A DNA stretch of 64,000 nt from an uncultured bacterium (GTDB lineage: Bacteria; Actinomycetota; Geothermincolia; Geothermincolales; Geothermincolaceae): NCBI GenBank assembly GCA_963765625.1, contig CAVXXD010000012.1, forward strand, positions 207,491-271,490. Reading direction: 5' to 3'. The position numbers and the translations under genes were made by a program. Numbering within the stretch: the first letter of the stretch is position 1; each line of letters begins with the position of its first letter. The notes beneath the pieces were generated by a model that saw only the letters and a program-made list of their open reading frames with translations, did no database searches and had not been told where the DNA came from. Shown here one piece after another: positions 1-64,000 of the stretch.

Positions 1-139
1 GATGCGAAGATCCCGCTTTGGTCAGCCATGCATATATTATACATGGTGTAAGATAACTATGGAGAACCTGTCCCCTGACATTGAAGGCGGTCTATCTCTC
101 CATTAACATTGGGGATAACGGATTATGGAGGAGGATCGA

Positions 140-24748: not shown

Positions 24749-27153
24749 TCAGGGCGTGAAGCCTATCGAGTCATGTGCCCAGGTGCGGGCGGTATCGTAC
24801 ATGGCCCGCTCGCAGATGACCCCTCCGCCGTTGGAGGTGACCATGGTGGAGACGTTGTAGTCGGTGACGTAGTCGTTGGCTTGAAGGTGACGCGGGAGTT
24901 GGCGGGGATGGAGACATTCTGCAAGTCAGTTGGGGTCTGGACCCCTGCCCCGGTCATCAGCGTAAGGTCCACGGTGACCGCCGCGGCGTTGGGGTTCTGT
25001 ACCAGCACCCAGGTCTCGAAGTCGCCGGCGGTCGCCCCCTCGGCCAGGTACCAGGCGTAGGCCATGCTGGTCGCCCCGATGGAGTCGTGAGCCCAGGTCC
25101 TGCCGTTGCCGTACACGGCCCGCTCGCAGATGACCGGCATGTTCGCCGTGACCATGGTGGAGACGTTGTAGTCGGTGACGGAGTCGTTGGCCTTGAACGT
25201 CTTCCTGGAATTGGCCGGGATGGACACATTCTGCGGCCCGGGCACGGCCCCCGCCCCGGTCATGAAGTCGACGTCGACGGTGACCGCCATGGCGTTGGGG
25301 TTCTGAACCAGTATGTAGGTCTCGAAGTCGCCCGCCGTAGCGCCCTCGGCCAGGTACCAGCCGTAGGCCGGGTCGGTCACCCCGATGGAGTCGTGGGCCC
25401 AGGTGCGGGCGGTGTCGTACATGGCCCGCTCGCAGATGACCGGCATATCCGCCGTGACCATGGTGGAGACGTTGTAGTCGGTGACGGAGTCGTTGGCCTT
25501 GAACGTCTTCCTGGAATTGGCCGGGATGGACACGTCCTGCGGCCCGGGCACGGCCCCCGCCCCGGTCATGAAGTCGACATCGACGGTGACCGCCGTGGCG
25601 TTGGGATTCTGCACCAGCACCCAGGTCTCGAAGTCGCCGGCGGTGGCCCCTTCGGCCAGGTACCAGGTATCGGCCGGGTCGGTCACCCCGATGGAGTCGT
25701 GGGCCCAGGTCCTGCCGTTGCCGTACATAGCCCGCTCGCAGATGACCCCTCCGCCGGTGGGGGTGACCATGGTGGAGACGTTGTAGTCGGTGACGTACTC
25801 GTTGGCCTTGAAGGTGACGCGCGAATTGGCGGGGATGGAAGCCCCCTGCGGTCCGGCCTTCAAGCCGGCCGAGGTCATGAAGTCGACGTCGACGGTGACC
25901 GCCGTGGCATTGGGGTTCTGCACCAGTATGTAGGTCTCGAAGTCGCCGGCGGTCGCACCCTCGGCCAGGTACCAGGTGGGGGCGACGTAAGTCCGCCACA
26001 CGCCGCAGCCCTCCACGGTGGTATCACTGTAGCCTGTGCCGGCCCAGAGATAGCCCTCAAAGACGGCCATGGAGTGGATGGCCAGGTTGTCGTCCAGGTC
26101 GCCGAAGCCGTTGACGTTTCGCTGGTCCCAGGCGGTGCCGCTCCACGACCACACCTCGCAGCCGGTGTCGTCGTCGCTGAGGCCGCAGTAGAGTTCTCCC
26201 CCGTAGATGAGCATATTGCGCACGGCGTCCGGGGGGTCAACCAAAGCCATCCAGGGCGGGGTGAGATCGGTCCAGGAGGTGCCGCCGTCATACTTATAGA
26301 TGGTGCCGCCGTTGCTTGAGTTTCCGATTCCCATGTAGAGTTCGTTATTGTAGACGGCCAGGCTGCGGGCGTCTTCGTTGTTCACGTTGCCGAGACCGGC
26401 GTCAGCCACCTTGGTCCAGTCAGTTGGGTCCGGGCCGTCATGACACCATACCTGGCAGCCGGTGTCACTGTTATAGACTCCCGCGTAGAGCTGGTCTTCA
26501 AAGACCACCATTGCCCGGACTCCCCAGTTATCGATGTCCCCGAACGCGTCGGTATTGGCTTGGGCCCAGTCGGTGCCGTCGTAAGCCCAGACCTCCGCCC
26601 CGGTGACGTCGTTGCCTGCCCCTACCCAGAGCAGGCCGTTGAAGTCGAGCATATACGCAGCCGTGTCGGTGTTGACGTCCCCGAAGCCGTCGGTGTTGGC
26701 CTGGGCCCAATCGGTGCCGTCGTAAGCCCAGACCTCCGCCCCTGTGATGGAATTCATCGTACTCACATAAAGCAGGCCCTTGTAAACGGCCATATGATAA
26801 GCGATGCGGTTGTTGACGTCCCCGAAACCGTCGTCATTGACCTGGACCCAGTCTGCCGGGTCCGGACCGTCGTACCGCCAGACCTGGCAGCCAAGGACAT
26901 TATTGAACGTCCCGGCGTAGAGCTTGCCGTTGTATCCGGCCATTGAGAAGGTGCTTCTGTTGTCGGTGGGGACCGTGATGCCGAAGCCCGGTTCGTTCAC
27001 TTCCTCCCAGGTCAACGGCGCCGCCAGCGCCGCGCCCGTCAGGACGAACGCCGGCAGCAGCAGCGCGGCTGTCAGCAACAGGGCCGCCGCGCCTTTCAAG
27101 AGTCTTTTCCCCATACCTCTCACTCCTTTCATGCTTGCTTTACCTGACGACAC
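24749..27153 (-). CDS. Secreted protein: signal peptide, ~8 beta-propeller-like ~46-aa repeats, then 4 copies of the ~105-aa repeat; frameshift in the last repeat (~24865)
   Basis: Propeller repeats read LY.G..N..TGAEVWAYDGTDWAQANTDGFGD.N. Four copies of the module WYLAEGATAGDFETWVLVQNPNA...ANSR.TFKAND.VTDYNVSTMV....VICERAMY...RTWAHDSIG. After a 1-nt correction at ttcaag|gccaac the last repeat completes to stop 24749..24751. Confidence 0.75.
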
Positions 27154-50404: not shown

Positions 50405-53400
50405 ATGGACGTCTTCAAACACCCGGCCCGGCTGCTGGAAGCGGTCCACTGGTCCAGTGTGGGGGTGATCGCTTTTCTTCCCCTGTACCAGGGGGCGGAC
50501 ATCTCCATCCTGCTCTGGGCGATCATCATGGCATCCCTGGTACTCGTCGGGGCCGCGCTCTTCTTCTATCTCAAGAAGAAAAAGAAGCTCCCCCAGCTCG
50601 GTTACCCGGTCCTGCTCATCCTGGACTCGGCCCTGGTTTCGCTGCTCATCTACAACAGCGGCGGGCTGTCCAGCCCCCTCTACCCCATGCTGATCTTCTT
50701 CGTCATGCTCAACTCGCTGGCGCGGCGCTGGAACCTGGCCCTCGTCGGGACGTTCACCATCGCCTCCTTCTACCTGGCCGCGTGCCTGCTGGAGAACTCG
50801 AGTTCTCTGGGTTACGTCCTGATCGTGAGGGTGGGGGTGATGGTCGTTTCCGCCCTGGTGCTGACCTGGATGATGATCCTGGACACCGAGGCGCACGGGC
50901 GCGGCGCCCGCATGCAGACCCTCTACGAGATCAGCACCTCGCTCTCCCGCTCCCTCGACCTCGAGCTTACCCTGGCCAACATCCTGGAGTCCACGGATCG
51001 GGTGTTCAAGACGGACATCAGCTCCATCCGCCTGATGAACCTCAATGCCAACACCCTGGTGGTCAAGGTCTCCGGCGACCCCGAACACGACCCGGAGGAG
51101 GCGGTGGAGATCGAGCTGGGCGAGGGTTTCATCGGGTGGGTGGCCAAGGAGGGCCGGCCCATCATCGTCAACGACGTCCCCCACGACCCCATGTTCGCCA
51201 TCTTCCCCAAGGCCAAAAAAAAGGTAGCCTCGGTACTGGCCGCCCCCATCTACCTGGGCGACACCGTGGTGGGCGTGCTTTCCTGCGCCAGCTCCAAGCC
51301 GGTCGAGTTCACCGATGACGACCTGCAACTCCTGGTTACCATCTCCAACCTGGCCGCCACGGCCATCGAGCGGGCCGAGTTGTTCGAACGCATCAGTACC
51401 CGCGGCGAGGTCATCGTGGAGAATATCAACTCCAGCATCATCGTCACCGATCCCGAAGGGGGCATCTCCCTCATCAACCAGGCGGCCCTGGACCTGCTGG
51501 ACCTGGAGGAGGACGTCAGGGGCGCCAATGTCCTGGGTCTGCTCGAAGGGAGGATCCGCAATTTCGATATCTTCTGGAAACGGATCGAGGAGGAGTTCGC
51601 GGTCCTGGAAAAAGAAGAGGGCGCCCCGGAAGAAGGCATGAGGGCCGGCCTCTCTCAGGAACTCCGCACCATCGGGCCCAACGAGAGATACCTGCTGGTC
51701 AAGTCCTCGCCCATCCGCGCCAGTTACGACGCCCTTTCCGGCTTCGTCTTCATCCTGGACGACATCACCGAACGGGTCAAGGTGGACGAGATCCGCAACG
51801 AGCTGATGCTGATGATCGCCCGGCGCGTCGAGGAGTTCAGCGCCCTCTACGAGATGGGTTACTCACTGGCCGGCATGAGCGACACCCAGTACATGCTGGA
51901 CCTGCTCATCCGGCGGGCCGTGGAATTGCTGGACGCAAGCTCCGGCGCCCTGGCCCTCTACGACCAGGACCAGGACGTCTTCGTCTACAAGGCGGCGGCG
52001 GGGATGAGGGACGAACTTCCAGGCATCACTTTCAAGGCGGGGGAAGGGCCCTCCGGCGAGGTGGTGGAGCGCCGGGAGTCGCTCCTCCTGGAGAGGTCGG
52101 TGCCGGAAGGGTCGGCCCTGCTGGCCGAGGAGGTCCCCAACGAGATCACCGCGCTGCTGAGCCCCATCGTCTGGAGGGACCGCTCTACCGGCATCTTCGA
52201 GATATACCGGGACGCCGAAGAGCGCCCCTTTTCCGGGGACGACCTCTCGCTGCTGGCCCTCTTCACCAGCCAGACGGCTATCGCTCTCGAAAACGTCAAC
52301 CTCTACCAGATCATGTCGGAGGACAAGACCAGGATGGAGTCCATCCTCCTGTCGGTGGCCGACGGCGTGGTGGCCCTGAACAACGACGCCCAGGTGATCC
52401 TGGTCAACTCGGAGGCGGAAAAGATCCTCAACCTTCCACCCTTCCAGGATATACAGGGGAGCCACGTCAAGGAGGTCATCCGCAACCCGGACATCGCCAA
52501 CCTTCTTTTAAAGAGCCTCTACACCCAGGACGAGCTGGCCCTGGAGATAACCCAGAGCATTCCCCGCAAGCTGATCATGGAGGTGCAGACCTCGGTCATC
52601 GACGACGAGAAAAAGGAGCGGCGGGGCGTGGTGGCGGTGCTGCGGGACATCACCCGCATGCGCGAGCTGGAGCAGGCCAAGTCGGACTTCGTCTCCACCG
52701 TCTCCCACGAGCTGCGCACTCCCCTCACCTCCATTAAAGCCTACACCGCCACCCTGCTGCGGGAGGACGTGACCTTCGACACCTCCACCCAGAGGGAATT
52801 TCTCAGTATTATTGAGGAGGAAGCCGACCGCCTGACCCGCCTCATCGCCGACTTGCTGGACGTGTCCCGCATCGAATCCGGCAAGTTCGAGCTGAAGACG
52901 CGGGAGTTCGACTTCATCAAGCTGATCAACATAGTCCTGGACAAGTTGATGTCGCAGACGGACATCCACGAGGTGGACGTGATCACTCCTGGCAGCCTGA
53001 CCCCGCTGATGGCGGACCCCGACAAGATCGAGCAGGTGCTTATGAATCTGCTCGGCAACGCCGTGAAGTACTCGCCGCGTGGCGGCCGCATCGAGGTGGA
53101 GGTCAAGGAGTATTCCAACAAGATCGAATGTTCCGTCAAGGATTCGGGGGTGGGCATCCCCAAGGAATACCTGGTAAGGGTGTTCGAGAAGTTCAGCCGG
53201 GTGGACAACCGCGCCACCCGGGGCATCGGCGGTACCGGACTGGGGCTCTACATCACCAGGAGTATCGTAGAGGCGCACGGCGGGACCATCTGGGTGGAGA
53301 GCAGCCCCTCCAAAGGGAGCAAGTTCCATTTCACCCTGCCCCTGGACTCCACCTTGAAGAAGAGCCTGCCCAACCCGGACGGTACTTCGCGTGGTCAAAA

Positions 53401-53419
53401 TCGGGACAAGGGCATATAA
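50405..53419 (+). CDS. Multi-sensor histidine kinase: N-terminal polytopic membrane domain, GAF/PAS sensor domains, HisKA and HATPase_c
   Basis: 1004 aa. ~6 TM helices, then three GAF/PAS-like segments, H-box VSHELRTPLTSI, and N/G boxes in the C-terminus. Confidence 0.8.
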   Translation: MDVFKHPARLLEAVHWSSVGVIAFLPLYQGADISILLWAIIMASLVLVGAALFFYLKKKKKLPQLGYPVLLILDSALVSLLIYNSGGLSSPLYPMLIFFVMLNSLARRWNLALVGTFTIASFYLAACLLENSSSLGYVLIVRVGVMVVSALVLTWMMILDTEAHGRGARMQTLYEISTSLSRSLDLELTLANILESTDRVFKTDISSIRLMNLNANTLVVKVSGDPEHDPEEAVEIELGEGFIGWVAKEGRPIIVNDVPHDPMFAIFPKAKKKVASVLAAPIYLGDTVVGVLSCASSKPVEFTDDDLQLLVTISNLAATAIERAELFERISTRGEVIVENINSSIIVTDPEGGISLINQAALDLLDLEEDVRGANVLGLLEGRIRNFDIFWKRIEEEFAVLEKEEGAPEEGMRAGLSQELRTIGPNERYLLVKSSPIRASYDALSGFVFILDDITERVKVDEIRNELMLMIARRVEEFSALYEMGYSLAGMSDTQYMLDLLIRRAVELLDASSGALALYDQDQDVFVYKAAAGMRDELPGITFKAGEGPSGEVVERRESLLLERSVPEGSALLAEEVPNEITALLSPIVWRDRSTGIFEIYRDAEERPFSGDDLSLLALFTSQTAIALENVNLYQIMSEDKTRMESILLSVADGVVALNNDAQVILVNSEAEKILNLPPFQDIQGSHVKEVIRNPDIANLLLKSLYTQDELALEITQSIPRKLIMEVQTSVIDDEKKERRGVVAVLRDITRMRELEQAKSDFVSTVSHELRTPLTSIKAYTATLLREDVTFDTSTQREFLSIIEEEADRLTRLIADLLDVSRIESGKFELKTREFDFIKLINIVLDKLMSQTDIHEVDVITPGSLTPLMADPDKIEQVLMNLLGNAVKYSPRGGRIEVEVKEYSNKIECSVKDSGVGIPKEYLVRVFEKFSRVDNRATRGIGGTGLGLYITRSIVEAHGGTIWVESSPSKGSKFHFTLPLDSTLKKSLPNPDGTSRGQNRDKGI

Positions 53420-53458
53420 TTATTTTGACATCCCATAAATATTCAGGGAGGGCAAGGC

Positions 53459-54403
53459 TTGGAGGTTAGCGAGAGGGCCATCAAGATTCTTCTGGTCGAC
53501 GACGAGCGCAACATCCTGGACATCGTCCAGTTCAACCTGGAGGTTGAAGGCTTCGAGGTGACGACCGCGTCCGACGGCATGGAAGCCCTGCGCGTGGTGC
53601 ACGACGCCGCCCCCGACCTCATCCTCTGCGACATCATGATGCCGGAGGTGGACGGTCTCGAGGTCTGCCGCCGCCTCAAGGCGGACAGCCGCACCAACCA
53701 GATTCCCATCGTCATGCTCTCGGCCAAAGCGCAGTCCCAGGACAAGCTGGATTCCATCGCGGCGGGGGCGGACGACTTCGTCACCAAGCCCTTCGACTTC
53801 AACGATCTGGTGGCGCGGATCAAGGTCAACCTCATCCGGGCCAAGCAGAAGAAGGACGTCAGCCCGCTCACCGGTTTCCCCGGCTCCATCTCCATCGAGG
53901 CGGAGATCAAAACTCGCGTCAAGCGTGCCGAGGCCTTCGCCACTCTCTACGTGGACATGGACAACTTCAAGCCCTTTAACGAGGTCTACGGCTTCCCCCA
54001 GGGGGACAAGGCCATCAAGATGCTGGCCGACATCATCGACGACGCCGTGCGCAAGGCGGGGAACATGGAGGACTTCGTGGGCCACGGCGGCGGGGACGAT
54101 TTCATGATCATCTCCACCCCGGACCGGGCCAAGGCCATCGCCATCTTTCTCATCGAGAACTTCGACCGTCGGGTGACCGCCCTCTACCGCGAGGAGGACC
54201 TCCAGCGGGGCTACTTCATCCGCGTCGACCGGGCGGCCAAGGAGAGCTACATTCCCATCACCACCATCAGCATCGGCATAGCCAGCAACGAGCACCGGAG
54301 GATCACCACCCATTGGGAAGTGGGCGAGATCGCCAAGGAAACGTTGAACTACGCCAAATCCATACCGGGAAGCACTTTCTTTATGGACAGGAGGGTCAAG
54401 TAA
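53459..54403 (+). CDS. Response regulator receiver fused to a GGDEF-type domain with degenerate GGDDF motif
   Basis: TTG start after RBS GGGAGGG. REC domain (LLVDDE...DLILCDIMMP...D, K). GGDEF fold with LTGFPG, DMDNFKPFNE and GHGGGDDF. Confidence 0.7.
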   Translation: MEVSERAIKILLVDDERNILDIVQFNLEVEGFEVTTASDGMEALRVVHDAAPDLILCDIMMPEVDGLEVCRRLKADSRTNQIPIVMLSAKAQSQDKLDSIAAGADDFVTKPFDFNDLVARIKVNLIRAKQKKDVSPLTGFPGSISIEAEIKTRVKRAEAFATLYVDMDNFKPFNEVYGFPQGDKAIKMLADIIDDAVRKAGNMEDFVGHGGGDDFMIISTPDRAKAIAIFLIENFDRRVTALYREEDLQRGYFIRVDRAAKESYIPITTISIGIASNEHRRITTHWEVGEIAKETLNYAKSIPGSTFFMDRRVK

Positions 54404-54445
54404 CCGGGGAGATGGAAGGGTTTGCAGGAGGACCAAAGGGGAGAT

Positions 54446-55219
54446 ATGGAAGAGAAATATAAAGTGCTGGTGGTTGAGGACGACGAATCCATCTCCAACG
54501 TGGTGGAGTTGAACCTGCGCCTGGACGGCTACGAAGTGTTCCTGGCCGCCGACGGGGAGGAGGGGCTGGCCAGGGTGGAGGAAGTCGAGCCCGACCTGGT
54601 CATCCTGGACGTGATGATGCCCAAGGTGGATGGCTGGGAGGTGCTCATGCGCCTGCGCCAGCAGCCGGAGACCAAGGATATCCCGGTGATCATGCTCACT
54701 GCCATCGGCGACGAGCAGTCCAAGGTGATGGGCCTGCGGGGCGGCGCCGACGACTACGTTGCCAAGCCCTTCAGCCCACTGGAGCTGACCGCCCGGGTCA
54801 AGGTCATCCTGGACCGCGTGGGCAAGGCCCAGCGGATGGCGGAGCGCGTGGCGGAGCAGGGGGAGGCCGGCGAAGCCCCCATCAAGCTGGAGCAGATCCC
54901 CGTGCAGAAGGGCGACACCATCATCCTCGTCCCCAAGGAAGACATCTACTTCATCGACACCAAGTACGAGTACGCCAACATCCATACTTACTCCGATTCC
55001 TACCTCACCACCTACAGCCTGACCGAACTGGAGAAGTCACTCGACCGCAACATGTTCTTCCGGACCCACCGCAGCTTCATCGTCAACTTGCGCAAGGTCA
55101 AGGAGATCATCAAGATATCCCGCAACAGCCTCATCGTGGCCCTGACCGACGAAAAGGCCAGCCGGGTGCCGGTCAGCCGGCGGCAGGCCACCCTCTTAAA
55201 GGACGCCCTGGGCATCTAG
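54446..55219 (+). CDS. LytR/AlgR-family response regulator (REC + LytTR DNA-binding domain)
   Basis: REC domain, then the LytTR signature ...FFRTHRSFIVNL..V. Confidence 0.75.
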   Translation: MEEKYKVLVVEDDESISNVVELNLRLDGYEVFLAADGEEGLARVEEVEPDLVILDVMMPKVDGWEVLMRLRQQPETKDIPVIMLTAIGDEQSKVMGLRGGADDYVAKPFSPLELTARVKVILDRVGKAQRMAERVAEQGEAGEAPIKLEQIPVQKGDTIILVPKEDIYFIDTKYEYANIHTYSDSYLTTYSLTELEKSLDRNMFFRTHRSFIVNLRKVKEIIKISRNSLIVALTDEKASRVPVSRRQATLLKDALGI

Positions 55220-55303: not shown

Positions 55304-55513
55304 ATGCAACTCAGCGCGAGGAACGTCCTGAAGGGCAAGGTCAAGAGCATCGAGCATGGCGCGGTCAACTCCGAGGTCGTGGTGGAGCTTCCGGGTGGGG
55401 CGGAAGTGGTCTCGATAATCACCAAGACATCAGCCGAGGGACTGAAGCTGAAAAAGGGCAAGAAGGTCTACGCCGTGATCAAAGCCTCCAACGTCATGAT
55501 CGGTGTGGACTGA
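55304..55513 (+). CDS. Mop / TOBE-domain molybdate(tungstate)-binding protein
   Basis: 69 aa, MQLSARNVLKGKV..I......V.V..GG...V..IT..S...L.L..G..V...IKAS.V, a classic single TOBE domain. Confidence 0.7.
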   Translation: MQLSARNVLKGKVKSIEHGAVNSEVVVELPGGAEVVSIITKTSAEGLKLKKGKKVYAVIKASNVMIGVD

Positions 55514-55534: not shown

Positions 55535-55563
55535 TTGACAAGCAATTGACCGCGTGCTAACTT
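55535..55563 (+). promoter_or_regulatory. Sigma70-like promoter (TTGACA, 17-nt spacer, TAACTT) driving the riboswitch-like leader
   Basis: Consensus -35 hexamer and a 4/6 -10 hexamer immediately 3' of the Mop stop codon. Confidence 0.45.
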
Positions 55564-55571
55564 AACTTCGC

Positions 55572-55672
55572 ATTGTAGGTTTTCCGAGCAGACCGGCCTA
55601 AAGCGTAAGCCAGGGCTGCCTGCCGATAGGGTACAACGGGAAACGGTTGTGCCTCCCGCATTTGGAAAGGGA
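55572..55672 (+). promoter_or_regulatory. Candidate molybdenum/tungsten-cofactor (Moco/Wco) riboswitch aptamer, copy 1
   Basis: Leader shares blocks with the 63347..63447 copy: AGGUUUUCCGAGCAG, CCUAA, GCCGAUAGGGUA, GGAAACGG, UGCCUCCCG, UUUGGAAAGG. The CCGAG, GCCUCC and GGAAAGG blocks match my recollection of the Moco-motif consensus. Downstream genes are Mo/W-related. Confidence 0.55.
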
Positions 55673-55695
55673 AACCGGGCCGGCGGACTTTACGT

Positions 55696-55730
55696 GGGCA
55701 TCCTTTCCAGGAGGGATGCCCTCTTGTTTT
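55696..55730 (+). terminator. Intrinsic terminator forming the expression platform of the leader
   Basis: GGGCATCC-tttccaggag-GGATGCCC followed by TCTTGTTTT. The 5' arm CCTTTCCA is complementary to the aptamer 3' end UGGAAAGG, an anti-terminator/terminator switch. Confidence 0.55.
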
Positions 55731-55827
55731 AACGCCGCGTGCCGTCCTTTCCTATGCGGGTAGGGCGGTATTTTTGTTGGGAGAGCCGGCAAGCAAGGCG
55801 GTAAAGAGGATTCTTGAGGAGGAGAAG

Positions 55828-58331
55828 ATGCGAAAGTTCCTAGTGTTAATGACAGTGGCGGCGTTATGTGCCGCACCGGGATTGGGCCTCTTCGGCGCCG
55901 CGGCTTCCCCCCGGCTAGCGCCGGATTCCAGGCGGACGCCCTGTCCGCGGCATCACCGAACTACCGGGTCTTCAGTGAGACCGACCTGAAGTCCATCAAG
56001 AAGATAACCCACAATCTCGATGCCAGCATCACCGAAGGACTGGCGGGCGGTCATTACACCTGTCAGAAGAATTCCGACCCCTTCACCTATTTCGAGCAGG
56101 ACTGGAAGGGAGTAGACCTCTCCTACCTGCTGAACCAGGAAGTGGGCATCAAAACAGGCACCACCGGTATCAAGATCATTGCCGCCGACGGATACGCGGT
56201 GACCCTGACCCTTGCGGACATCGAGGGTTACAATGGGCTGCCGGCCCTGCTCGGCTACCTGCGCGGTGACTCCAGTGACAACAATCCTCCCAACGAAGAA
56301 GGAACCATGGATGGAACCGGGACCTTCCCCTCCGTGGACCCGGTTGATACGAACGTCGAGATCGACGCGGAAGAAGGCCCCTTCCGGCTGGTCCTTCCCC
56401 AGAGCACCATCGGCCCGGATCCCCGCGACGTCGCCTACAGTCCGGTGGGAAGTGGTACCGCCAACTGGAACAAGGCGGTCATGCAGGTGCGCGCCGTCGA
56501 GGTACAGCCGGTATCCCCGGGCATCCCGGCCATCGATTACGAGGCCATTCCCAGCAACCAGGTTGTCGTTTACGGCAACATCGAGAACCGCCATACCTTC
56601 ACCGTCGACCAGCTCAAATCGATCAACCCCGTCAGTGGCACGTATACCTTCAGGAAGTCCTTCGGTGACCCGCCCGAATACAGCGAGGAGAATCACGAAT
56701 GTGCAGGGGTCACTCTGTCCTACCTGCTGGACGATGTCCTCGGGCTGCAGGACGCGGCTGAAAACGTAACGACCATATGCTCGGACGGCTATGGTGTCGG
56801 AAAGGTCATCTCCCTGGAAGACATGAGGCAGGTCGGCTTGAACGGCATGCAGTTCATGCTCTGCCTGAACCTGGACGGGGCGGACCTGGGTCCCGAGCCT
56901 GATGACAAAGGCCCAGTTTACCTGGTCAAGCCGCTGATGACCGATGACCCCCTCGAGACCAACAGTAGCAAATGGATGAAGAACATCAGGTCGATCGTGG
57001 TGAACACCTCATCCGACCCGGGGCCCGATTGGGCCAGGATCCCAACTGACCGCGTCATCGTCAGCGGCCTCTCCAACGCGGGCAACATCCCCAACGAGTG
57101 GTTCCTGCCCGAGGGGTGCACCGGCTTCGGCTTCGAGGAATGGATCCTCATCGAGAACCCCAACCCCTGGCCCACCGACGTCATCGTCGATTACATGATC
57201 GAGGGTGAGGCCATGCAGACCAGGACTTACGACGACGTTGCGGCCGAATCGCGCTTCTCCATCAATGTGGCAGCCGAGATTGGCACGGACAAGAACGTCA
57301 GCGCCAGGGTGGAAGGTTACCACGGCGACTCCATCGTCGTGGAGCGCGCCATGTACTGGGGCGACCGCGACGGCGGTCATTGCTCCGGCGGCATCCAGCG
57401 GGCTCTCAACACCTGGTACTTGGCCGAGGGGTGCACAGCCGATATCTTCGAGACCTGGGTGCTGGTTCAGAACCCGGGCGACACCGACGTCATCGTGGAC
57501 TTCACTCTTATGACTGAAGCCGGTGAGCAGAATCCTGAGGGCCTGCAGGACCAGACCATAGCCGCTAATTCTCGCCGCACCTTCAACCTGGGAGACTTCG
57601 TCCAGTCATATGACGTCTCCACCAGGGTTGTCGCCTCCGGTGACGTCATCGTGGAACGTGCCGTTTACTGGAACGACCGCGACGGCGGCCACTGCGCCGG
57701 CGGCGTTGCCGGCCCCGGTAACGAATGGTATCTGGCCGAGGGGTGTACTAATTCTCCCTTTGAGACCTGGGTGCTGGTGCAGAACCCGACCGCGGCTGCC
57801 GTCAACATCGACATGGACCTGATCACCGACACCGGCGTGGTGCAGGGCCCGCAGGAAGCTATCGCCCCCAACTCGCGCAAGTCCTATAACCTGGTCGACT
57901 ACACCGCGAGTTATGACGTGTCGACAAGGGTCACGGCGGACGGTAGCGGGATCATCGCCGAGCGCGCCGTCTATTGGAACGACCGCGACGGCGGCTCCTG
58001 CGAGAGCGCCAGCGACCACGGCAAATTCAAGGCCTACCTGGCCGAGGGCGCCACGGCCGGCGGCTTCGAGACCTGGGTGCTCTTCCAGAACCCCGGGGCC
58101 GTCGATGCCACCATCAATGTGACCTATCTCACCGATTCCGGCGTGGTCGTCAAGGAACCCTTCGTAGTGGCCGCCGGGACGCGTAAATCAGTCAACGTCA
58201 TCGAAGACGTCGGAGAAAAATACGATGTCTCCACCGTCGTCACGGCCAGCGCGCCGGTGGTGGTGGAGCGTGCCGTCTACTGGGCCGAGCGCATCGAGGG
58301 AAGCTGCGCCAAGGGGCTTTCCGCCTGGTAG
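55828..58331 (+). CDS. Secreted protein with two sulfite-oxidase-fold (molybdopterin-oxidoreductase-like) domains followed by 5 copies of the ~105-aa repeat; frameshift in the signal-peptide region (~55905, C5 run)
   Basis: Signal peptide MRKFLVLMTVAALCAAPGLGLFGAAAS is in ORF 55774.. and the body in ORF 55866..58331. SUOX-like blocks GGHYTCQKNSDPFTYFEQDWKGVDLSYLL ... DGY.V.L.L and FRLVLPQ. Repeats carry WYLAEGCT..FETWVLVQNP ... VVERAVYWNDRDGG. Confidence 0.65.
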
Positions 58332-58478
58332 CGCTGGAAATGACCGCCTGACAAGTGGATTTTCCTCCCACTTGTTCGAAGGGGGCTCTTCGGGGTCCCC
58401 TTCACCTATTTTTATAACTCCCGCGTGTTGGGATAATAAGATAGATAAATAGCAAGCATCGGATAAGAGGAGGCAGGC

Positions 58479-59984
58479 TTGACGGCGAAATCCCGCATAT
58501 TGTTGGTCGTATCCATTATCCTCCTGCTGGGAGCGGCCTTCGCCCTGGTCTTCCGCTATGTCGAAGTGGAGCACAACAGGGTGCTTTCATACGACGACGT
58601 CACCGGGATGCCGGCGGTAAGCGCGAGCTACCACAGCATCAACAACTGGGCCACGGTGGAGGACACCGATTTCACCGGCGTGCCCCTTTACCAGGTCCTC
58701 GAGAAGGTCGGCGTAACCGATGGGGTGGTTCAGATACAGGTGATCGCGCCCGACGGTTATTTCTGGCCGGCCGTGGACGATACCCTGACTCTGGACGAGT
58801 TGCGCACCCCCAACCAGCAAGGGCTCTATGCCCTGCTGGCATGGGAGATGAACGGAGAGACGCTTCAGCCGGAACCGGACGGCTCCGGGCCCCTGCGGCT
58901 GGTCTTGCCCCAGTATGGCGAGGAGGAAGTCAACAAGCCCTCCTGGGTGTCCAACGTCCGCCTGCTCCTGGTCGGGCCACTCGAAGAGGGTTACCAGGCG
59001 CCCGATGCAGGGGAGGTGCCGGTAGAGGAGGTCCGGATAGGAGGGAATGTCCCGCCCGGGTACCCATACCCGCTCTGGCCGGTGGTCCTGATGGGGATCA
59101 TCGGCCTATTGCTGCTGGGGGAAGTCGCGGCAGACAAGCTCAGAATCCGTCAGATGGGGCCCCAGAAGGTGGCTGTTCTGATCCTTGTGGCCACCGTCTT
59201 TTCCGTATCGTTGGCGATGATGGAGGCGGATCGGGCTGTCGCGGAGAGTCCGCAGGCGGTCTTTTCTCTGGAAGAACTGCGGTCCATGCCCGCCTCCGGC
59301 GGACATTACACCTTCCTGAAATCACAGGAGCCCTTCACCTATTACGAAGAGGATTACGAAGGGGTCTCACTCTCTTACCTGCTCCAGGGAGCCACGCAGC
59401 TGGAGCCCGGCGCCGACGGGGTGGTAGTGAGGTGCACGGACGGCTACAAGGTCAGCCTGAGCCTCTCCCAGGCCGTGCAGGTCTACCCCGGAGGCCTCCA
59501 GGCTATAATCGCTTATTCCAAAAGGGGAGAGTCTTTCAAAGGGGATGAAGGGCCACTCCGCCTCATCGTGCCCCAGGCCAGCCCCGGCGACAAGGCCGGC
59601 GGTGGCGACGCCAACACCCCTTACTGCGCCCGCATGGTCTATGCGGTGGAGGTAACGCCGCTGCCGGCCGGCCTGACACCGCCTTCCGCGGCCAGTGTGC
59701 CGGCAGGGTCACTGGCCGTGTACGGGGCGGTCACCGTGCCGGCGGCACCTGAACAGCCGGCGGTCACACCACCGCTGGAACCGGTAGAGGAAACCACGAC
59801 GCAAGCGAATGTGGAGACCCCCGCCAATAACATCGCCGTGACCCCGGCAGCGACGGAGTTTACCCTCAACGGACTGCCCCCAAGCCTCTCGCGCCTGGTG
59901 CTTGGCGTGACCCTGGCGGGAGGGCCCTACCCGCTTACCATGCAGCTCTGGATAGCCTCCGAAAGTGAACGTGGTCCCTCATGA
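58479..59984 (+). CDS. Membrane-anchored protein with two sulfite-oxidase-fold domains separated by two TM helices
   Basis: Domain 1 has GVPLYQVLE ... LAWEMNGETL ... GPLRLVLPQ ... KPSWVSNVRLL, close to the SUOX/YedY core motif LAYEMNGEPL..GFPLRLVVPG. Domain 2 has GGHYTFLKSQEPFTYYEEDYEGVSLSYLL ... GPLRLIVPQ. The putative Mo-ligand Cys is absent from domain 2. Confidence 0.6.
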   Translation: MTAKSRILLVVSIILLLGAAFALVFRYVEVEHNRVLSYDDVTGMPAVSASYHSINNWATVEDTDFTGVPLYQVLEKVGVTDGVVQIQVIAPDGYFWPAVDDTLTLDELRTPNQQGLYALLAWEMNGETLQPEPDGSGPLRLVLPQYGEEEVNKPSWVSNVRLLLVGPLEEGYQAPDAGEVPVEEVRIGGNVPPGYPYPLWPVVLMGIIGLLLLGEVAADKLRIRQMGPQKVAVLILVATVFSVSLAMMEADRAVAESPQAVFSLEELRSMPASGGHYTFLKSQEPFTYYEEDYEGVSLSYLLQGATQLEPGADGVVVRCTDGYKVSLSLSQAVQVYPGGLQAIIAYSKRGESFKGDEGPLRLIVPQASPGDKAGGGDANTPYCARMVYAVEVTPLPAGLTPPSAASVPAGSLAVYGAVTVPAAPEQPAVTPPLEPVEETTTQANVETPANNIAVTPAATEFTLNGLPPSLSRLVLGVTLAGGPYPLTMQLWIASESERGPS

Positions 59985-60515
59985 GCCTGCGCGGGTGGCT
60001 TACGGCCACGGCCCTGGTCTGCCTTATCGCCGGTTGTGCCTTCGCCGGGGCCGGCTGCGGGGATGAGCAGCAGCCGTCACGCTTCTTGAAGAGCGAGGAA
60101 CGCCTGGAAGGGATGTACGAAGCCTGCAAGACTATCGCCATCAGCGACCCGGCGGGAGAGCGCCCTCCCATCCTCGCGGACGAGCTGGCGGGGTATCCCC
60201 GCGTCGATGTGACCACGGAACTGGTGCGGTCCAACGGCATGCGCCTGCCGGGCACCTGGAGCGGCGCGTCGATCTCGGAGGTCCTGGCGAAGCACGGTGT
60301 GGAAGGACCCTTCACCGAGCTGCGCATCGTTGCCTGGGACGAATACGTGGCCAAGGTACCCTTACGACATCGCCATGCGCCCCGACACCATTCTCGCCTA
60401 CGAGCAGGAAGGAGAACCCCTCCCGCGGGAGGACGGCCCGGTGCGGCTGGTGGTGGGGAGCGAGGACGGCTTCTTCTGGATCCGCATGATCGTCCGGCTG
60501 GAAGTGGTGCGTTGA
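59981..60515 (+). CDS. Lipoprotein with a single sulfite-oxidase-fold domain, frameshift near 60360
   Basis: Lipobox LIAGCAF. RLPGTWSGASISEVLAKHGV is in ORF 59981.., then ILAYEQEGEPLPREDGPVRLVVGSEDGFFWIRMIVRLEV in ORF 60297..60515. Confidence 0.55.
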
Positions 60516-60526
60516 AGCGCCTGTCC

Positions 60527-61363
60527 ATGCGCGCCGCCCTGATCTTCGTCCTGTCGGCCTGCCTGACCCTCGCCGTCCTGTCATCGGGGTGCGGAGGTGG
60601 CATCCCCGAGTCGGAGCGGAGCGAACTGATCCTGGCCACTACCACCAGCATGCTCGACTCCGGTCTGCTCGAGGAGTTGGTCGTCCGCTTCGAAGAAGAG
60701 TATCCCTACCGCGTGAAGGCCATCGCCGTGGGGAGCGGCGCGGCGCTGCTGATGGCCAGGCAGGGTGAAGCGGACGTGACCGTCACTCATGAGCCCAATG
60801 CGGAGAAGGAACTGATGGAAGCAGGGTTCGGGGAGAGCTGGCAGGAAGTGATGTACAACGACTTCATCATCGTCGGGCCCCCGGAAGACCCTGCCGGGAT
60901 CGCGGGCATGACCGAGGCCGCGGAGGCCTTCCGGCGGATCGCTGAAAGTGAAAGCTCCTTCTTTTCCCGCGGTGACGCTTCCGGGACCAACGCCATGGAA
61001 CTGGCCACCTGGAGCCGGGCGGGGATAAACCCGGATGGTGACTGGTATCACGAGAGCGGCCAGGGCATGGGGTACAGCCTCCGGATGGCGGATGACGGGG
61101 GAGCCTACACCCTCTCGGACCGGGCCACCTTCATAGTGCTGGAAAAAGCCCTGCGCATGGAAGTTATGGTGGAAGGCGACCCCGACCTCATCAACCATTA
61201 TTCGGCTATAGTGGTGAACCCCGAGAAGTTCTCCGGGCTGAACCACCAGGGGGCCGTGGACTTCGCCAATTTTCTTTTAGGGGACGAGACCCAGGAGTTC
61301 ATTGCCGGATTCGGCTGGGACCGCTATCACCAGCACCTCTTTTACCCCGTCAGCCCGGAATAA
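60527..61363 (+). CDS. tupA: Tungstate ABC-transporter substrate-binding lipoprotein
   Basis: Lipobox LSSGCGG. The TupA anion-binding signature ATTTSMLDSGL is present, with the remainder PBP-type-2-like. No tupB/tupC is adjacent. Confidence 0.7.
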   Translation: MRAALIFVLSACLTLAVLSSGCGGGIPESERSELILATTTSMLDSGLLEELVVRFEEEYPYRVKAIAVGSGAALLMARQGEADVTVTHEPNAEKELMEAGFGESWQEVMYNDFIIVGPPEDPAGIAGMTEAAEAFRRIAESESSFFSRGDASGTNAMELATWSRAGINPDGDWYHESGQGMGYSLRMADDGGAYTLSDRATFIVLEKALRMEVMVEGDPDLINHYSAIVVNPEKFSGLNHQGAVDFANFLLGDETQEFIAGFGWDRYHQHLFYPVSPE

Positions 61364-61388: not shown

Positions 61389-61736
61389 TTACTCGATGAG
61401 CAGCAGGTCTCCCGGCTCCGTCGAGGTCTCGCTCAGCCTGCCGGCTGGTAGCTCCAGGGCCTTCCGGCCCTTCAGGCAAACAGGGCTGATCCGCCCCGGG
61501 CGGAGAGACGGCGCCGTCTTGAGCACTCTTCCCTCACGATCCAGGAAGGCCACGTCGATGGTGTAGCGCATGCCGAAGGTGTGGACGTTGCGGCAGGGTA
61601 CCAGGAGCATGCCGTCGCGTCCCTGCCAGCCTTCGCTTGAGAGCAGGCCGCGCGATCTTGCGCGGGCGGTGTCCGCCACTTCAACGACCTCGCCCAGCAG
61701 GGTATTCTTGCTCCGGTTGCTTATTCTTACGAACAT
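61389..61736 (-). CDS. DUF192 (COG1430) family protein
   Basis: C-terminal 115 aa of ORF 61389..62102 from MFVRISNRS. GMLLVPC..VHTFGMRY.IDVAFLD is the DUF192 core. The upstream extension is a shadow of fdhD. Confidence 0.55.
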   Translation of the reverse strand: MFVRISNRSKNTLLGEVVEVADTARARSRGLLSSEGWQGRDGMLLVPCRNVHTFGMRYTIDVAFLDREGRVLKTAPSLRPGRISPVCLKGRKALELPAGRLSETSTEPGDLLLIE

Positions 61737-61793
61737 GTTGAAAGAATAGACCGGCGCCAGGGGGCGCGCAAGCGTTATGCTATTCTTTATGAA

Positions 61794-62660
61794 GTGCAAG
61801 GGAACGGGACATTGTCGGAGGTGGGCATGTCTACGGTGGATTGGGAGATAAGCAGGATTTACGCGGACGGCGGGCGCGAGACGCTGCTCGACCGGGTGGT
61901 TGTGGAGCAACCCCTGGAGATCAGCGTCAACGGCATGCCCGTGGTGGCCCTGATGCGCCTGCCCGGCAACGACAAGGAACTGGCGGTGGGCTTCTGCATC
62001 ACCGAGAAGATCATCGTCTCCGCCGCCGACATCAAGCTGCTCAGGCACTGCGGTGAACTGGAGAAGAAGGTTGCCGCAGGCGAAAGTGGGGAAGAGGCGC
62101 AATCTCCCTACGACCGGTCCAACCTGGTCGAGCTGGAGGTGGAGAGGGCCTGCGACACCGGCCGGTTCGCCTCCACTTACGTGGTCCGCACCGGCTGTGG
62201 TGGCGCCGACCTCTCAGCCATGCTGGAGGATTATGCCGGCGTCGTCACCTCGGACCTGCGGCTCAAAGGCGAGGCTGTACACGGCCTGGGGGGCAAGCTC
62301 ACCGCTTGCCAGGAGGTCTTCCGGGGAACGGGCGGGACACACGGGGCGGCCGTCTTCACGGCCGCGGGGGAACTGGTCGTGGCCCGGGAAGACGTCGGCC
62401 GCCACAACGCCCTGGACAAGGTGGTGGGGCACTGCGCCATGGCCGGCATCCCCCTCGAGGACAAGGTCCTCTTCATCTCCGGGCGCATCAGTTACGAGAT
62501 GGCCTTGAAAGCCATCCGCTCCGGTTCCCCGGTCCTGGCCTCACTGGCCGCCCCCACCAGCCTGGGGCTGCGTATCGCCGAGGAGGCCGGGCTCACGGTC
62601 ATCGGCTTCTCGGACGGCCGCCGTTTCAATGTCTACACCCATCCCGGCAGGGTGGAGTAA
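61794..62660 (+). CDS. fdhD: Formate dehydrogenase accessory sulfurtransferase FdhD
   Basis: 288 aa. TGCGGADL catalytic-Cys loop and C-terminal GRHNALDKVVGHCAMAGIPLEDKVLFISGRISYEM. Confidence 0.75.
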   Translation: MQGNGTLSEVGMSTVDWEISRIYADGGRETLLDRVVVEQPLEISVNGMPVVALMRLPGNDKELAVGFCITEKIIVSAADIKLLRHCGELEKKVAAGESGEEAQSPYDRSNLVELEVERACDTGRFASTYVVRTGCGGADLSAMLEDYAGVVTSDLRLKGEAVHGLGGKLTACQEVFRGTGGTHGAAVFTAAGELVVAREDVGRHNALDKVVGHCAMAGIPLEDKVLFISGRISYEMALKAIRSGSPVLASLAAPTSLGLRIAEEAGLTVIGFSDGRRFNVYTHPGRVE

Positions 62661-63288
62661 CAGGCATGAAAGACAGGCCGGCCGGAGTTTCCTGCGCCAT
62701 CCTGGCGGGAGGAGAGGGCAGCCGCCTGCGGGCCGAGAAGGCCCTGCTGACCATCGGCGACCAGTTTCTGGCGGAGACCCTCATCGCCAACCTGCGCCCC
62801 CTCTTCGACGACATCATGCTGGTGGCCAGGAGTGAGCATTCCCCCTTGAGGGCCTTGAGCGGCCCCGGGGTGCGGCTGGTGACGGACATAATGTACCGCA
62901 AGGGTCCCCTGGGGGGCATCCACAGCGCCCTTCACTACTCCGAGAAGCCCGTTCTGCTTCGTCATCGCCTGCGACATGCCCTTTCCCGCCCTCACTCTGG
63001 TTGAGCGGATGGTGCAGCTGGCCGAAGGGCATGAGGCCGTGGTGCCCCGCCGCGGTGAATATATCGAGCCGCTCTTCGCCGTCTATGCGCGGAGCCTGGA
63101 GGAGCGGGCCCGGGTTTTCCTGGAGGAGGGGAAGAAGAAGATCCACGACTTCCTGGACGAGGTGGACGTCCTCTACCTGGAATGAGACGGAGATCGAACT
63201 GCTTGACCCGCAAGGCTTCTCCTTCTTCAACATCAACACCCCCGAGGACCTGGCCAGGGCCAGGGAGATATACCTGAACAAGGAATAA
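62657..63288 (+). CDS. mobA: Molybdenum cofactor guanylyltransferase MobA, interrupted by 2 frameshifts (~62960, ~63185)
   Basis: SCAILAGGEGSRL..EKALL N-terminal motif in ORF 62657... Continues in ORF 62976..63185 (VVPRRGEYIEPLFAVY) and ORF 63001..63288. Confidence 0.6.
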
Positions 63289-63304: not shown

Positions 63305-63333
63305 TTGACACGCTTCTTGTCCGTCATGATAAT
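63305..63333 (+). promoter_or_regulatory. Sigma70-like promoter (TTGACA, 17-nt spacer, GATAAT) driving the second riboswitch-like leader
   Basis: Same -35 hexamer and spacing as the promoter at 55535..55563. Confidence 0.45.
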
Positions 63334-63346
63334 TTTCCTCATGTAT

Positions 63347-63447
63347 TGCAGGTTTTCCGAGCAGCCCCACCTAAGGCCGCGAGGCTAGGGAGAGGTTGCC
63401 GATAGGGTAAGGTTGGAAACGGCCCTGCCTCCCGTGTTTGGAAAGGA
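63347..63447 (+). promoter_or_regulatory. Candidate Moco/Wco riboswitch aptamer, copy 2
   Basis: Same conserved blocks as copy 1, with different intervening sequence. Downstream CUGCUCGG at 63565..63572 can pair with the aptamer 5' block CCGAGCAG. The start codon of a SUOX-domain gene follows at 63617. Confidence 0.5.
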
Positions 63448-63616
63448 AGACCTAAAGCGCTCGCCGGTGAAGGGTATCTCCTCCCTGGAGAAACCTCGAT
63501 CTGCAGGGCTTGGTTTTCTTGCAGACATGCGGCGGCCCCCTTTTCCAACTTCCGAATAACGGCTCTGCTCGGAGCGGATTTCGTCTACTGATGGAAAGCG
63601 AGGAGGTAAGGGGTAT

Positions 63617-64000
63617 GAGAAAGGCACTGACGTTCCTGCTGCTGCTGGTACTGTGCCTGGGCACCATGGTCACCATGGCGGTGACGCCGGTCTCGGGGCC
63701 CGGCGCGGCCGTGGCGGCCACCGGCGAGTCACAGCCGCACTTTTTCCTATAACTACTTGAAGTCGCTACCCGAGACCCACGGGCACTACGGCTTGCAGAA
63801 CAGCGGCACCACCTACTACGAGCAGGACTGGTTGGGAGTCGACCTGCAGTACCTCCTGGATACGGAGGTTGGCCTCGCCGCGGGCACGACCGGCGTCAAG
63901 GTGCAGGCCTACGATTTCGCGAACGGTACGAGCATGACCCTGGACCAGTGCAACGGCAACAGCAGCGACAAGGGCCTGAAGACCCTTCTTGCTTACAAGA
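63617..64000 (+). CDS. Secreted sulfite-oxidase-fold domain protein, 5' part (runs off the window); frameshift near 63750
   Basis: Signal peptide MRKALTFLLLLVLCLGTMV, then in the next frame HGHYGLQNSGTTYYEQDWLGVDLQYLLDTEVGLAAGTTGVKVQAYD, homologous to the domains in 55828..61363. Confidence 0.55.

Follow-up and report, generated by a model that had tools for sequence, protein, structure and literature searches.

RNAs of the molybdenum cofactor (Moco) riboswitch class precede genes for cofactor-using enzymes, and 58 of 176 such RNAs lacked the P3 helix, a variant that tracked tungsten metabolism, with tungsten genes found in 17 of the 19 organisms that had P3-less RNAs (PMC2408646). Two P3-less RNAs located before putative sulfite oxidase genes in S. 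wolfei were an unexplained exception (PMC2408646). In the moaA leader of E. coli, the ribosome-binding site (RBS) lies in the 3′ strand of P1 and the logic is OFF, and deletion of P3 from this RNA abolished regulation (PMC2408646). In E. limosum, genes behind terminator-type P3-less riboswitches rise under W limitation (PMC11725836), which provides in vivo support for the OFF logic of terminator-type P3-less members. Here we describe two P3-less RNAs of this class in a 64,000-nt stretch (the window, to which all coordinates refer) of contig CAVXXD010000012.1 (GCA_963765625.1) of an uncultured member of the Geothermincolaceae. We consider it likely that they form a pair of the tungsten cofactor (Tuco) type, in which copy 1 is a ligand-OFF switch of the operon that follows and copy 2 may act through a Shine-Dalgarno (SD) sequence.

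The proteins of this operon have their closest described counterpart in PruR (7KOM, 7KP2, 7KOS/7KOU and 7RKB; PMC11194511), a small secreted protein with a minimal sulfite oxidase (SUOX) fold that lacks the Mo-ligand Cys and contacts its pterin by an Asn, a stacking Tyr and a Trp (PMC11194511). A 2026 review of pterin signalling mentions no riboswitch, Actinobacteria or tungsten link, and in RegPrecise, coenzyme uptake is recorded for the B12, thiamin, riboflavin, queuosine and folate riboswitches and not for MOCO. In the part of the literature that was covered, we found no paper linking PruR-like proteins with Moco/Tuco riboswitches, tungsten or Gram-positives, and no described regulon joining a Moco riboswitch to sulfite oxidase genes.

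A sequence-only reading of the window had noted a promoter followed by conserved blocks that recurred about 7.7 kb away and resembled the Moco riboswitch, possibly its P3-less variant. All of this was borne out. The four conserved blocks of copy 1 repeat 7773 nt downstream, and a full Rfam scan of the window gave exactly two matches to RF01055 (molybdenum/tungsten riboswitch aptamer) above the gathering score of 36 bits, where membership was taken as a score at or above this value together with a full-length match. Both copies align to model positions 1-135, which is the full length. The scores, including those of a lineage covariance model (R1) built from aptamers of the window lineage and run with filters off, are as follows.

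55570 to 55688, plus strand: copy 1 aptamer, RF01055, P3-less, subtype A (67.9 bits, E 3e-14; R1 107.8 bits)
63343 to 63464, plus strand: copy 2 aptamer, RF01055, P3-less, subtype A (78.3 bits, E 3e-17; R1 98.7 bits)

There was no third or degenerate copy in the window, where the best remaining R1 score was 9.8 bits. In copy 1, P1 is formed by 55578-55585 with 55669-55676, and the invariant GGAAAGG is located at 55664-55670. The model positions of the P3 hairpin are deleted in both copies, such that only GAU separates the P2 3′ strand from AGGG.

The structure was evaluated in 20 related loci, retrieved via homologs of the 501-aa protein of the window and all from metagenome-assembled genomes (MAGs) of uncultured Actinomycetota (Ca. 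Solincola, Geothermincolia and related). Aptamers were present in 20/20 loci, giving 38 beyond the window pair (by Rfam, and by R1 for locus L016), and P3 was absent from all 40; alignment columns 68-72, at the P3 position, read CGAYA in 32 of the 38. When these 38 sequences were aligned with MAFFT, without use of the Rfam model, RNAalifold recovered P1, P2, P4 and P5, with compensatory double changes at 18 of 32 pairs. The paired cells amounted to 93.8%, compared to 80.3% in shuffled alignments and at most 55% when the partners were slid by 1-3 columns, and none of 500 shuffles matched the observed value on any of five measures. The P4 GAAA tetraloop was found in 38/38 aptamers, and its P2 receptor, CCUAAR...YANGG, was also present. 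One receptor position (columns 34/54 of alignment A2; 55602 and 55612 in the window) covaries between A.C (n = 24) and G.U (n = 13). These wobble pairs are isosteric, and G.U occurs almost only in subtype-A aptamers.

The long identical blocks common to the two window copies could in principle result from duplication of a promoter or leader fragment, with similarity of primary sequence only and no structured RNA. The probability of this is negligible given the covariance-model E-values of 1e-14 to 1e-17, the 186 two-sided compensatory cells compared to 69 in shuffles, and the loss of pairing in the slid controls. The P3-less aptamers are conserved with covariation, and the null in which a promoter fragment was simply duplicated is therefore refuted. 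The window RNA shows the score, helices, tetraloop with receptor and gene context by which RF01055 is recognised, and lacks P3 as its subclass does; both elements are genuine P3-less members. The riboswitch as such adds nothing new to the class and would be annotated by any Rfam scan.

The interest lies in the genes linked to these aptamers, which in the window are the following.

55304 to 55513, plus strand: gene of a Mop/TOBE molbindin, 69 aa (NCBIfam TIGR00638, 89.4 bits versus a cutoff of 55)
55816 to 58331, plus strand: gene of an approximately 821-aa protein (SD GAGGAGGAG at 55816-55824, ATG at 55828, Sec-type signal peptide)
58351 to 58413, plus strand: conserved intercistronic hairpins between the 821-aa and 501-aa protein genes (58351-58375, and 58378-58403 plus ACCTATTTTT)
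58479 to 59984, plus strand: gene of a 501-aa membrane protein (PF00174, E 1.8e-20, two domains)
59981 to 60515, plus strand: gene of a single-domain SUOX/PruR-fold lipoprotein of the 173-aa family (lipobox LIAGC; PF00174 match)
60539 to 61363, plus strand: gene of a TupA-like binding lipoprotein, 274 aa (PBP_like_2, E 6e-34)
63615 to 64000, plus strand: start of the gene of another secreted paralog, built from this type of domain (Sec signal peptide), cut off at the window edge

The downstream genes were counted across the loci by tblastn, and two aptamer subtypes of 20 members each were distinguished. Subtype A, with the signature GGUUUUCCGAGCAG ... GGAAAGGRARACC, lies upstream of the gene for the approximately 800-aa protein in 20/20 cases, followed by a TOBE gene in five loci. 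Subtype B, with the signature GCUCUCCGAGCC ... GGAAAGGAGGG-N5-8-AUG, adjoins the start codon of the 500-aa protein gene in 17/20 cases, followed by the 173-aa and TupA-like genes, with a TOBE gene as well in five. In two other cases subtype B precedes a gene for a 253-aa protein and then a tupABC-like operon, and in one it lies directly before such an operon. The A and B aptamers are divergent neighbours in most loci, and in the window and its three closest relatives (L001-L003; L001 is also numbered L023) one subtype-A aptamer heads a collinear set of genes. The SD sequence of subtype B, GGAGG, forms the P1 3′ strand and lies 5-8 nt ahead of the start codon, as in the E. coli moaA design, and therefore ligand binding must repress translation.

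It was found that a SUOX-fold gene is located downstream of 37 of the 40 aptamers. The conserved regulon comprises an approximately 800-aa surface protein, a 500-aa membrane protein, a 173-aa lipoprotein, a TupA-like protein and Mop, and the SUOX-fold association is thus the rule in this lineage, with proteins that are Cys-less and PruR-like. The Mo/W genes linked to RF01055 are the TupA-like, Mop and tupABC-like genes downstream, and FdhD and MobA genes between the window copies. The first reading had regarded the regulon as unusual for the class, and it indeed holds no moa or mod genes, but the S. wolfei RNAs of 2008 (PMC2408646) are a precedent that makes it less unprecedented. The P3-less variants of E. 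limosum (n = 5) and S. wolfei resemble the RNAs described here in the absence of P3, in their tungstate-type transporters and in the occurrence of both platform types in one organism; the differences are that the SUOX-fold link is here a rule, and in Actinomycetota, and that behind the copy 1 aptamer stand two putative terminators in tandem, both of which carry an antiterminator box. Compared to the E. coli moaA leader, the elements share P1, P2, P4 and P5, the junction blocks, the GAAA tetraloop with its P2 receptor, the OFF logic as predicted here and, in subtype B, the RBS within P1, whereas P3 is missing, copy 1 has two hairpins instead of RBS occlusion, and no moa or mod genes follow.

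The SUOX fold assigned earlier to the secreted proteins was upheld by PF00174 and by matches in the PDB, with the correction that the domains are minimal, PruR-like and without the Mo-ligand Cys. The 821-aa protein (its long open reading frame listed from 55866) consists of two Cys-less SUOX/PruR-fold domains and DUF5719 surface repeats, and its PF00174 match is weak (23 bits, just below threshold). The 501-aa protein has a transmembrane helix, domain 1, two transmembrane helices, domain 2 and a Pro-rich tail, and both of its PF00174-type domains are predicted to face outside. When a profile of five domain types was searched against the PDB, the best match was PruR 7KOM (E 5e-13), followed by 7KP2, 7KOS and 7RKB, with the sulfite dehydrogenase SorA behind PruR (5e-8). 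For the 173-aa lipoprotein family, an AlphaFold model built from 53 sequences (pLDDT 87.9) gave 42 significant PDB fold matches, and all 42 were SUOX Moco domains or PruR; the model spans the whole of PruR (TM 0.72 normalised to 7KOM) and only the core of the enzymes (TM 0.24-0.43). A profile search of a protein database returned almost wholly Actinomycetota MAGs, and Syntrophomonas was not reached.

No Cys is invariant in all five domain types, and none is conserved at the Mo-ligand position; the only invariant columns are G, D and Y of a D-G-Y motif and G. The profile alignment to SorA begins 18 residues past Cys104, and the family consensus upstream of it has no Cys. Cys is conserved only in the lipobox and at positions C46 and C383. 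The regulon proteins have no heme, and the motif CxxCH is absent from all of them. The N termini, judged by eye, are Sec-type signals, lipoboxes or transmembrane anchors, and the same inspection showed that no twin-arginine is kept across orthologs. Moco is inserted in the cytoplasm, and extracytoplasmic molybdoenzymes are exported via the twin-arginine translocation (Tat) system; the absence of a conserved twin-arginine thus argues against conventional cofactor-loaded enzymes. Together with the lack of a Mo-ligand Cys and of heme, this indicates that the regulon proteins are probably minimal PruR-like SUOX domains that serve in binding or acquisition and are not enzymes.

Compared to PruR, the best profile match of the domain family, the window domains share the small, secreted, minimal fold without a Mo-ligand Cys, and their D-G-Y motif aligns with the pterin-contacting N-x-Y, in which the Tyr is invariant and the position of the Asn is occupied by an invariant Asp. 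A further difference is a G-P-x-R-L motif that keeps the Arg of SUOX enzymes where Vibrio PruRs have Trp. Unlike PruR, the domains belong to multi-domain surface and membrane proteins of a monoderm, their genes are under a Moco/Tuco riboswitch and linked to TupA-like and Mop genes, and the neighbours in the regulon loci are these and paralogs, with no DcpA-type partner. With the SUOX molybdoenzymes (SorA 2BLF, chicken sulfite oxidase 1SOX and YedY/MsrP 1XDQ) they share the fold (Foldseek E 6e-9, TMq 0.64) and the motifs W-x-G-V-x-L and P-L-R-L-V-V-P, but the window domain is only about 140 aa long and has no Mo-ligand Cys, no dimerisation or heme domain, and no conserved twin-arginine signal.

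Two other Cys residues were observed. C46 of the 173-aa family (alignment A5; window approximately 60110-60130) is a nearly invariant free Cys in the motif GMYEAC of an N-terminal extension, located before the SUOX-fold core and away from the canonical Mo-ligand position. A second near-invariant Cys is found in domain 2 of the 500-aa family, in NTPxCARM. Either could conceivably be a non-canonical metal ligand. Partial similarity to NF041762, "GEGP motif-containing diheme protein", was also found in a segment with the motif (D/E)-E/G-G-P-L-R-L, for window 58479-59984, window 55866-58331 and L021 7185-9590 (76, 43 and 47 bits; cutoff 300), and it seems that the same domain is fused to diheme cytochromes elsewhere. 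A redox role suggested by this match was considered and set aside, as none of the regulon proteins contains CxxCH.

The sequence-only reading had also proposed that GGAAAGG of the aptamer and CCUUUCC of a terminator pair in a mutually exclusive switch. The logic proved real, but the platform is a tandem of two hairpins, not one terminator: its terminator is the hairpin called T1 here, and a second hairpin, T2, which is the one balanced against the aptamer in folding, lies beyond 55730, where that reading ended. The elements of the copy 1 leader other than the aptamer are as follows.

55535 to 55563, plus strand: sigma-70-type promoter of copy 1 (-35 TTGACA at 55535-55540, 17-nt spacer, TAACTT at 55558-55563)
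55696 to 55731, plus strand: hairpin T1, from a terminator scan (stem 55696-55721, -17.5 kcal/mol, weak U-tail TCTTGTTTTA)
55739 to 55778, plus strand: hairpin T2 (core 55742-55768, extended stem 55739-55771, -18.4 kcal/mol)

The promoter, which is where the first reading had placed it, has an extended -10 element (TGcTAACTT, 55555-55563, with TG at 55555-55556) and a predicted start at about 55570. The -35 element and TGnTAnnTT are conserved in the orthologous leaders of L001 and L002, and from these motifs we infer that the promoter is functional. The Mop gene lies directly upstream of it, and in other loci the TOBE gene is the last in the riboswitch operons.

T1 and T2 are both predicted to consist of a GC-rich stem and a U-tract, as in intrinsic terminators, with the tail of T1 being weak. 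The tail of T2 is TATTTTTGTT (55769-55778; also written as the core plus UAUUUUUGUU), a better U-tract than that of T1. Each hairpin contains a CCTTTCC box complementary to the aptamer GGAAAGG: box 1 in the 5′ arm of T1 (55702-55708) and box 2 in T2 (55746-55752). Both hairpins are conserved in the L001-L003 alignment, with compensatory substitutions in each stem (in T1 of L003, a change of A-U to G-C), and tandem hairpins are found in most subtype-A leaders of the lineage.

Folding was performed with constraints and shortened transcripts, since unconstrained whole-leader folds missed the aptamer, and enforcement of P1 was used as a proxy for the ligand-bound state. With P1 enforced, T1 and T2 form in 15/15 leaders. 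In the unconstrained window RNA, a long helix pairs 55655-55685 (CCCGCAU/GGAAAGGG/linker) with 55733-55760 (linker/UCCUUUCC/AUGCGGG), leaving T1 intact inside and destroying T2. This alternative fold is favoured by 13.3 kcal/mol at a transcript end of 55760; at 55770 the margin is 5.3 kcal/mol, which ligand binding could plausibly overcome. Across the leaders, 0-6.2 kcal/mol separate the free state from the bound one, and the anti-T2 fold is the minimum in 5/15. It appears from these models that copy 1 is a ligand-OFF transcriptional switch with two successive hairpins, in which T2 is the probable main regulated terminator and T1 may be a weak terminator, a nucleating hairpin or a kinetically regulated terminator.

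In the proposed mechanism, copy 1 would be transcribed from its own promoter. With the cofactor bound, P1 and P5 would keep GGAAAGGGAAACC in the aptamer, T1 and T2 would form, and transcription would halt before the operon. Without ligand, 55655-55685 would pair with the T2 5′ arm and loop (55733-55760), T2 would be blocked, and the polymerase would read through; a kinetic antiterminator against T1, UUUGGAAAGG with CCUUUCCAGG, would also be possible. A single aptamer with a double terminator would be a compact design for sharper switching.

Copy 2 has a different leader.

63305 to 63333, plus strand: promoter of copy 2 (TTGACA, 17-nt spacer, GATAAT; 11/12 consensus)
63536 to 63617, plus strand: putative translational expression platform of copy 2 (C/U box CCCCCTTTTCCAACTTCC at 63536-63553; ATG at 63615)

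Neither the terminator scan nor a comparison of hairpins revealed a hairpin and U-tract comparable to T1 or T2 after copy 2. In the predicted fold, the C/U box pairs with the SD sequence GAGGAGG (63600-63606) and the G-run GGGG before the ATG; it could otherwise pair with the aptamer GGAAAGG. In addition, CTGCTCGGA (63565-63573) is a 9-nt perfect reverse complement of UCCGAGCAG in the aptamer. This arrangement resembles the sequestor/anti-sequestor designs of E. limosum (PMC11725836). The fold of this leader was no better than that of shuffled sequences (z = -1.2), and an orthologous copy 2 leader was not found among the loci. A reasonable guess from the predicted pairing is that copy 2 turns translation of the further paralog OFF by SD sequestration.

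Several results weigh against the reading of copy 1 given above. The unconstrained minimum free energy (MFE) folds of the full window leaders do not reproduce the aptamer, the anti-T2 helix is missing from the full-length MFE in 10/15 leaders, and T1 is present in every thermodynamic state once transcribed. Furthermore, the strong hairpin at 58378-58403 lies between genes 1 and 2, so that control of the last four genes needs read-through; the assignment of Tuco to P3-less RNAs consists of genomic correlation and indirect in vivo data; and the transporter proteins, although nearest to tungstate families, all score under the NCBI equivalog cutoffs. It is possible, if somewhat unlikely, that T1 is the sole regulated terminator, acting via box 1 in its 5′ arm, and that T2 is a constitutive back-up or an unrelated hairpin. 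At a transcript end of 55711 the antiterminator UUUGGAAAGG:CCUUUCCAGG is indeed the MFE (-54.8 versus -53.0 kcal/mol with P1 on, a gap of 1.8), box 1 and the aptamer 3′ end form a duplex of -20.5 kcal/mol, and T1 is conserved. However, T1 forms in all states once its 3′ arm emerges, its poor U-tail degenerates in L002 and L003, and a constitutive T2 with a good U-tract would abolish expression; T2 also has its own conserved CCUUUCC, and folding in the unliganded state strongly favours the anti-T2 helix. An ON switch, by which the cofactor would activate cofactor-dependent enzymes, would be biologically sensible if the downstream proteins were such enzymes, and the activity of WOR1 in E. limosum requires W (PMC11725836). 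We regard it as very improbable, because enforcement of P1 gives both terminators in all 15 leaders, the subtype-B SD is part of P1, the regulon proteins lack a Mo/W-ligand Cys and are unlikely to be enzymes, and feedback repression is what one would expect for the tupABC-like uptake genes that this class also controls.

Granted an OFF switch, the ligand could be Moco, or the RNA could fail to discriminate between Mo and W, and the regulon would then serve molybdenum homeostasis. Both ligands fall under the single family RF01055, the evidence for the specificity of P3-less RNAs is genomic correlation and indirect in vivo data (deletion of P3 in E. coli simply killed regulation), the binding protein, permease and ATPase are below the TupA, TupB and WtpC equivalog cutoffs, and Mop binds molybdate as well as tungstate. 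Against this stand the absence of P3 from every aptamer of the lineage, the tungsten genes in nearly all organisms with P3-less RNAs in the 2008 survey (17/19), the response of the E. limosum P3-less riboswitches to W limitation, and the transporters themselves: aptamers of this class are also found before tupABC-like operons of L001 and L002, and in the operon of the closest relative all three parts are nearest to TupA, TupB and WtpC, ahead of ModB and ModC, at scores below the cutoffs. By this comparison of genes and RNAs, Tuco appears to be the ligand rather than Moco, which we rate as a somewhat unlikely alternative. The gene first read as encoding TupA has TupA (NF041772) as its nearest family, matching near full length (E 9e-53), but at 179.4 bits (181.3 for L021) it is far below the equivalog cutoff of 400; it is a lipoprotein, as expected for a monoderm, and the window operon has no permease or ATPase, which in relatives occur in a separate tupABC-like operon.

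A regulon of this composition could function in extracytoplasmic capture and relay, although we put this forward only tentatively. A substrate would pass from the S-layer-like surface protein to the two-domain membrane protein, the lipoprotein and the TupA-like protein, of which the first three carry PruR-like, Cys-less pterin-pocket domains. The relay would scavenge tungstate or a pterin-type cofactor or precursor (molybdopterin, cyclic pyranopterin monophosphate or Tuco) and would be off when intracellular Tuco suffices. If true, the relay would supply the uptake arm that the Moco/Tuco riboswitch regulon has so far lacked and would explain the sulfite oxidase exception of 2008. Genes behind an OFF switch that senses a cofactor can be relied on to make, import or spare it. 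With 20/20 loci marking a conserved secreted set of Cys-less SUOX/PruR-fold proteins, the 2008 anomaly may become a defined protein family, and the link of the regulon to tungstate-type binding and storage proteins suggests that extracellular pterin-pocket domains act in the acquisition of tungsten or a pterin cofactor. In the L021 ortholog of the 821-aa protein, a weak S-layer (Slr4) match was observed.

We infer that the five genes are co-transcribed. The second intercistronic hairpin (58378-58403), GAAGGGGGCTCT TCGG GGTCCCCTTC, forms a strong stem that resembles a terminator, and the quality of its U-tail varies; the hairpins show compensatory changes in L003, and in L001 only about 25 nt lie between the hairpin and the next start codon. 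They may be a partial terminator or an RNA-stability element that sets the ratio of surface protein to downstream gene products or stabilises the upstream mRNA. The window could contain a separate promoter for the 501-aa protein gene (TGgGATAAT, 58429-58437), but in L001 there is not enough space for such a promoter, and read-through is the simpler explanation.

Between the two riboswitch units (61389-63288) are a DUF192 gene on the minus strand, fdhD (61794-62660), which passes the NCBIfam FdhD cutoffs, and a mobA-like gene (approximately 62665-63288). The fdhD and mobA genes are maturation genes for a formate dehydrogenase with bis-molybdopterin guanine dinucleotide, which is consistent with a Mo/W-cofactor island; the 64-kb window contains no gene for a W enzyme. 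Just past the position of the window end, L023 (14875-19792) and L002 (from 14807) have two more P3-less aptamers, one before the gene of a Cys-rich 253-aa protein (no Pfam or NCBIfam match) followed by TupA-like, permease and ATPase-TOBE genes, and the other directly before a tupABC-like operon and then moeA. The window probably truncates a larger tungsten island.

Between 55.8 and 64 kb, the reading frame is broken in four genes or more. In the 821-aa protein gene (C6 run at about 55906; 55900-55912) and the copy-2 gene (T5 run at about 63741; 63739-63746), the break puts the signal peptide and the body in different frames; the lipoprotein gene is broken at about 60354-60361 and mobA at about 62940-62960 and 63170-63190. 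The orthologs are intact in short-read MAGs, and the closest relative (contig_18610) is fragmented in other genes. The breaks are probably long-read indel errors, with pseudogenisation as the alternative. A decaying regulon was rejected as the principal explanation because two breaks fall in homopolymers and the genes are intact in the short-read MAGs.

Directly upstream of Mop, a signalling cluster (50405-55219) encodes a 1004-aa GAF/PAS histidine kinase, a GGDEF response regulator (53459-54403) and a LytTR response regulator (54422-55219), and it is syntenic in L023 (3271-6773). The PruR of Proteobacteria controls a GGDEF-EAL enzyme; the closeness of PruR-like domains to a GGDEF regulator here may or may not be a coincidence. 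DUF5719 repeats were also found together with TIG and FnIII-like domains at 125-3127 (plus strand) and 24763-27153 (minus strand), in both cases with no riboswitch, and DUF5719 appears to be a general cell-surface module of the lineage.

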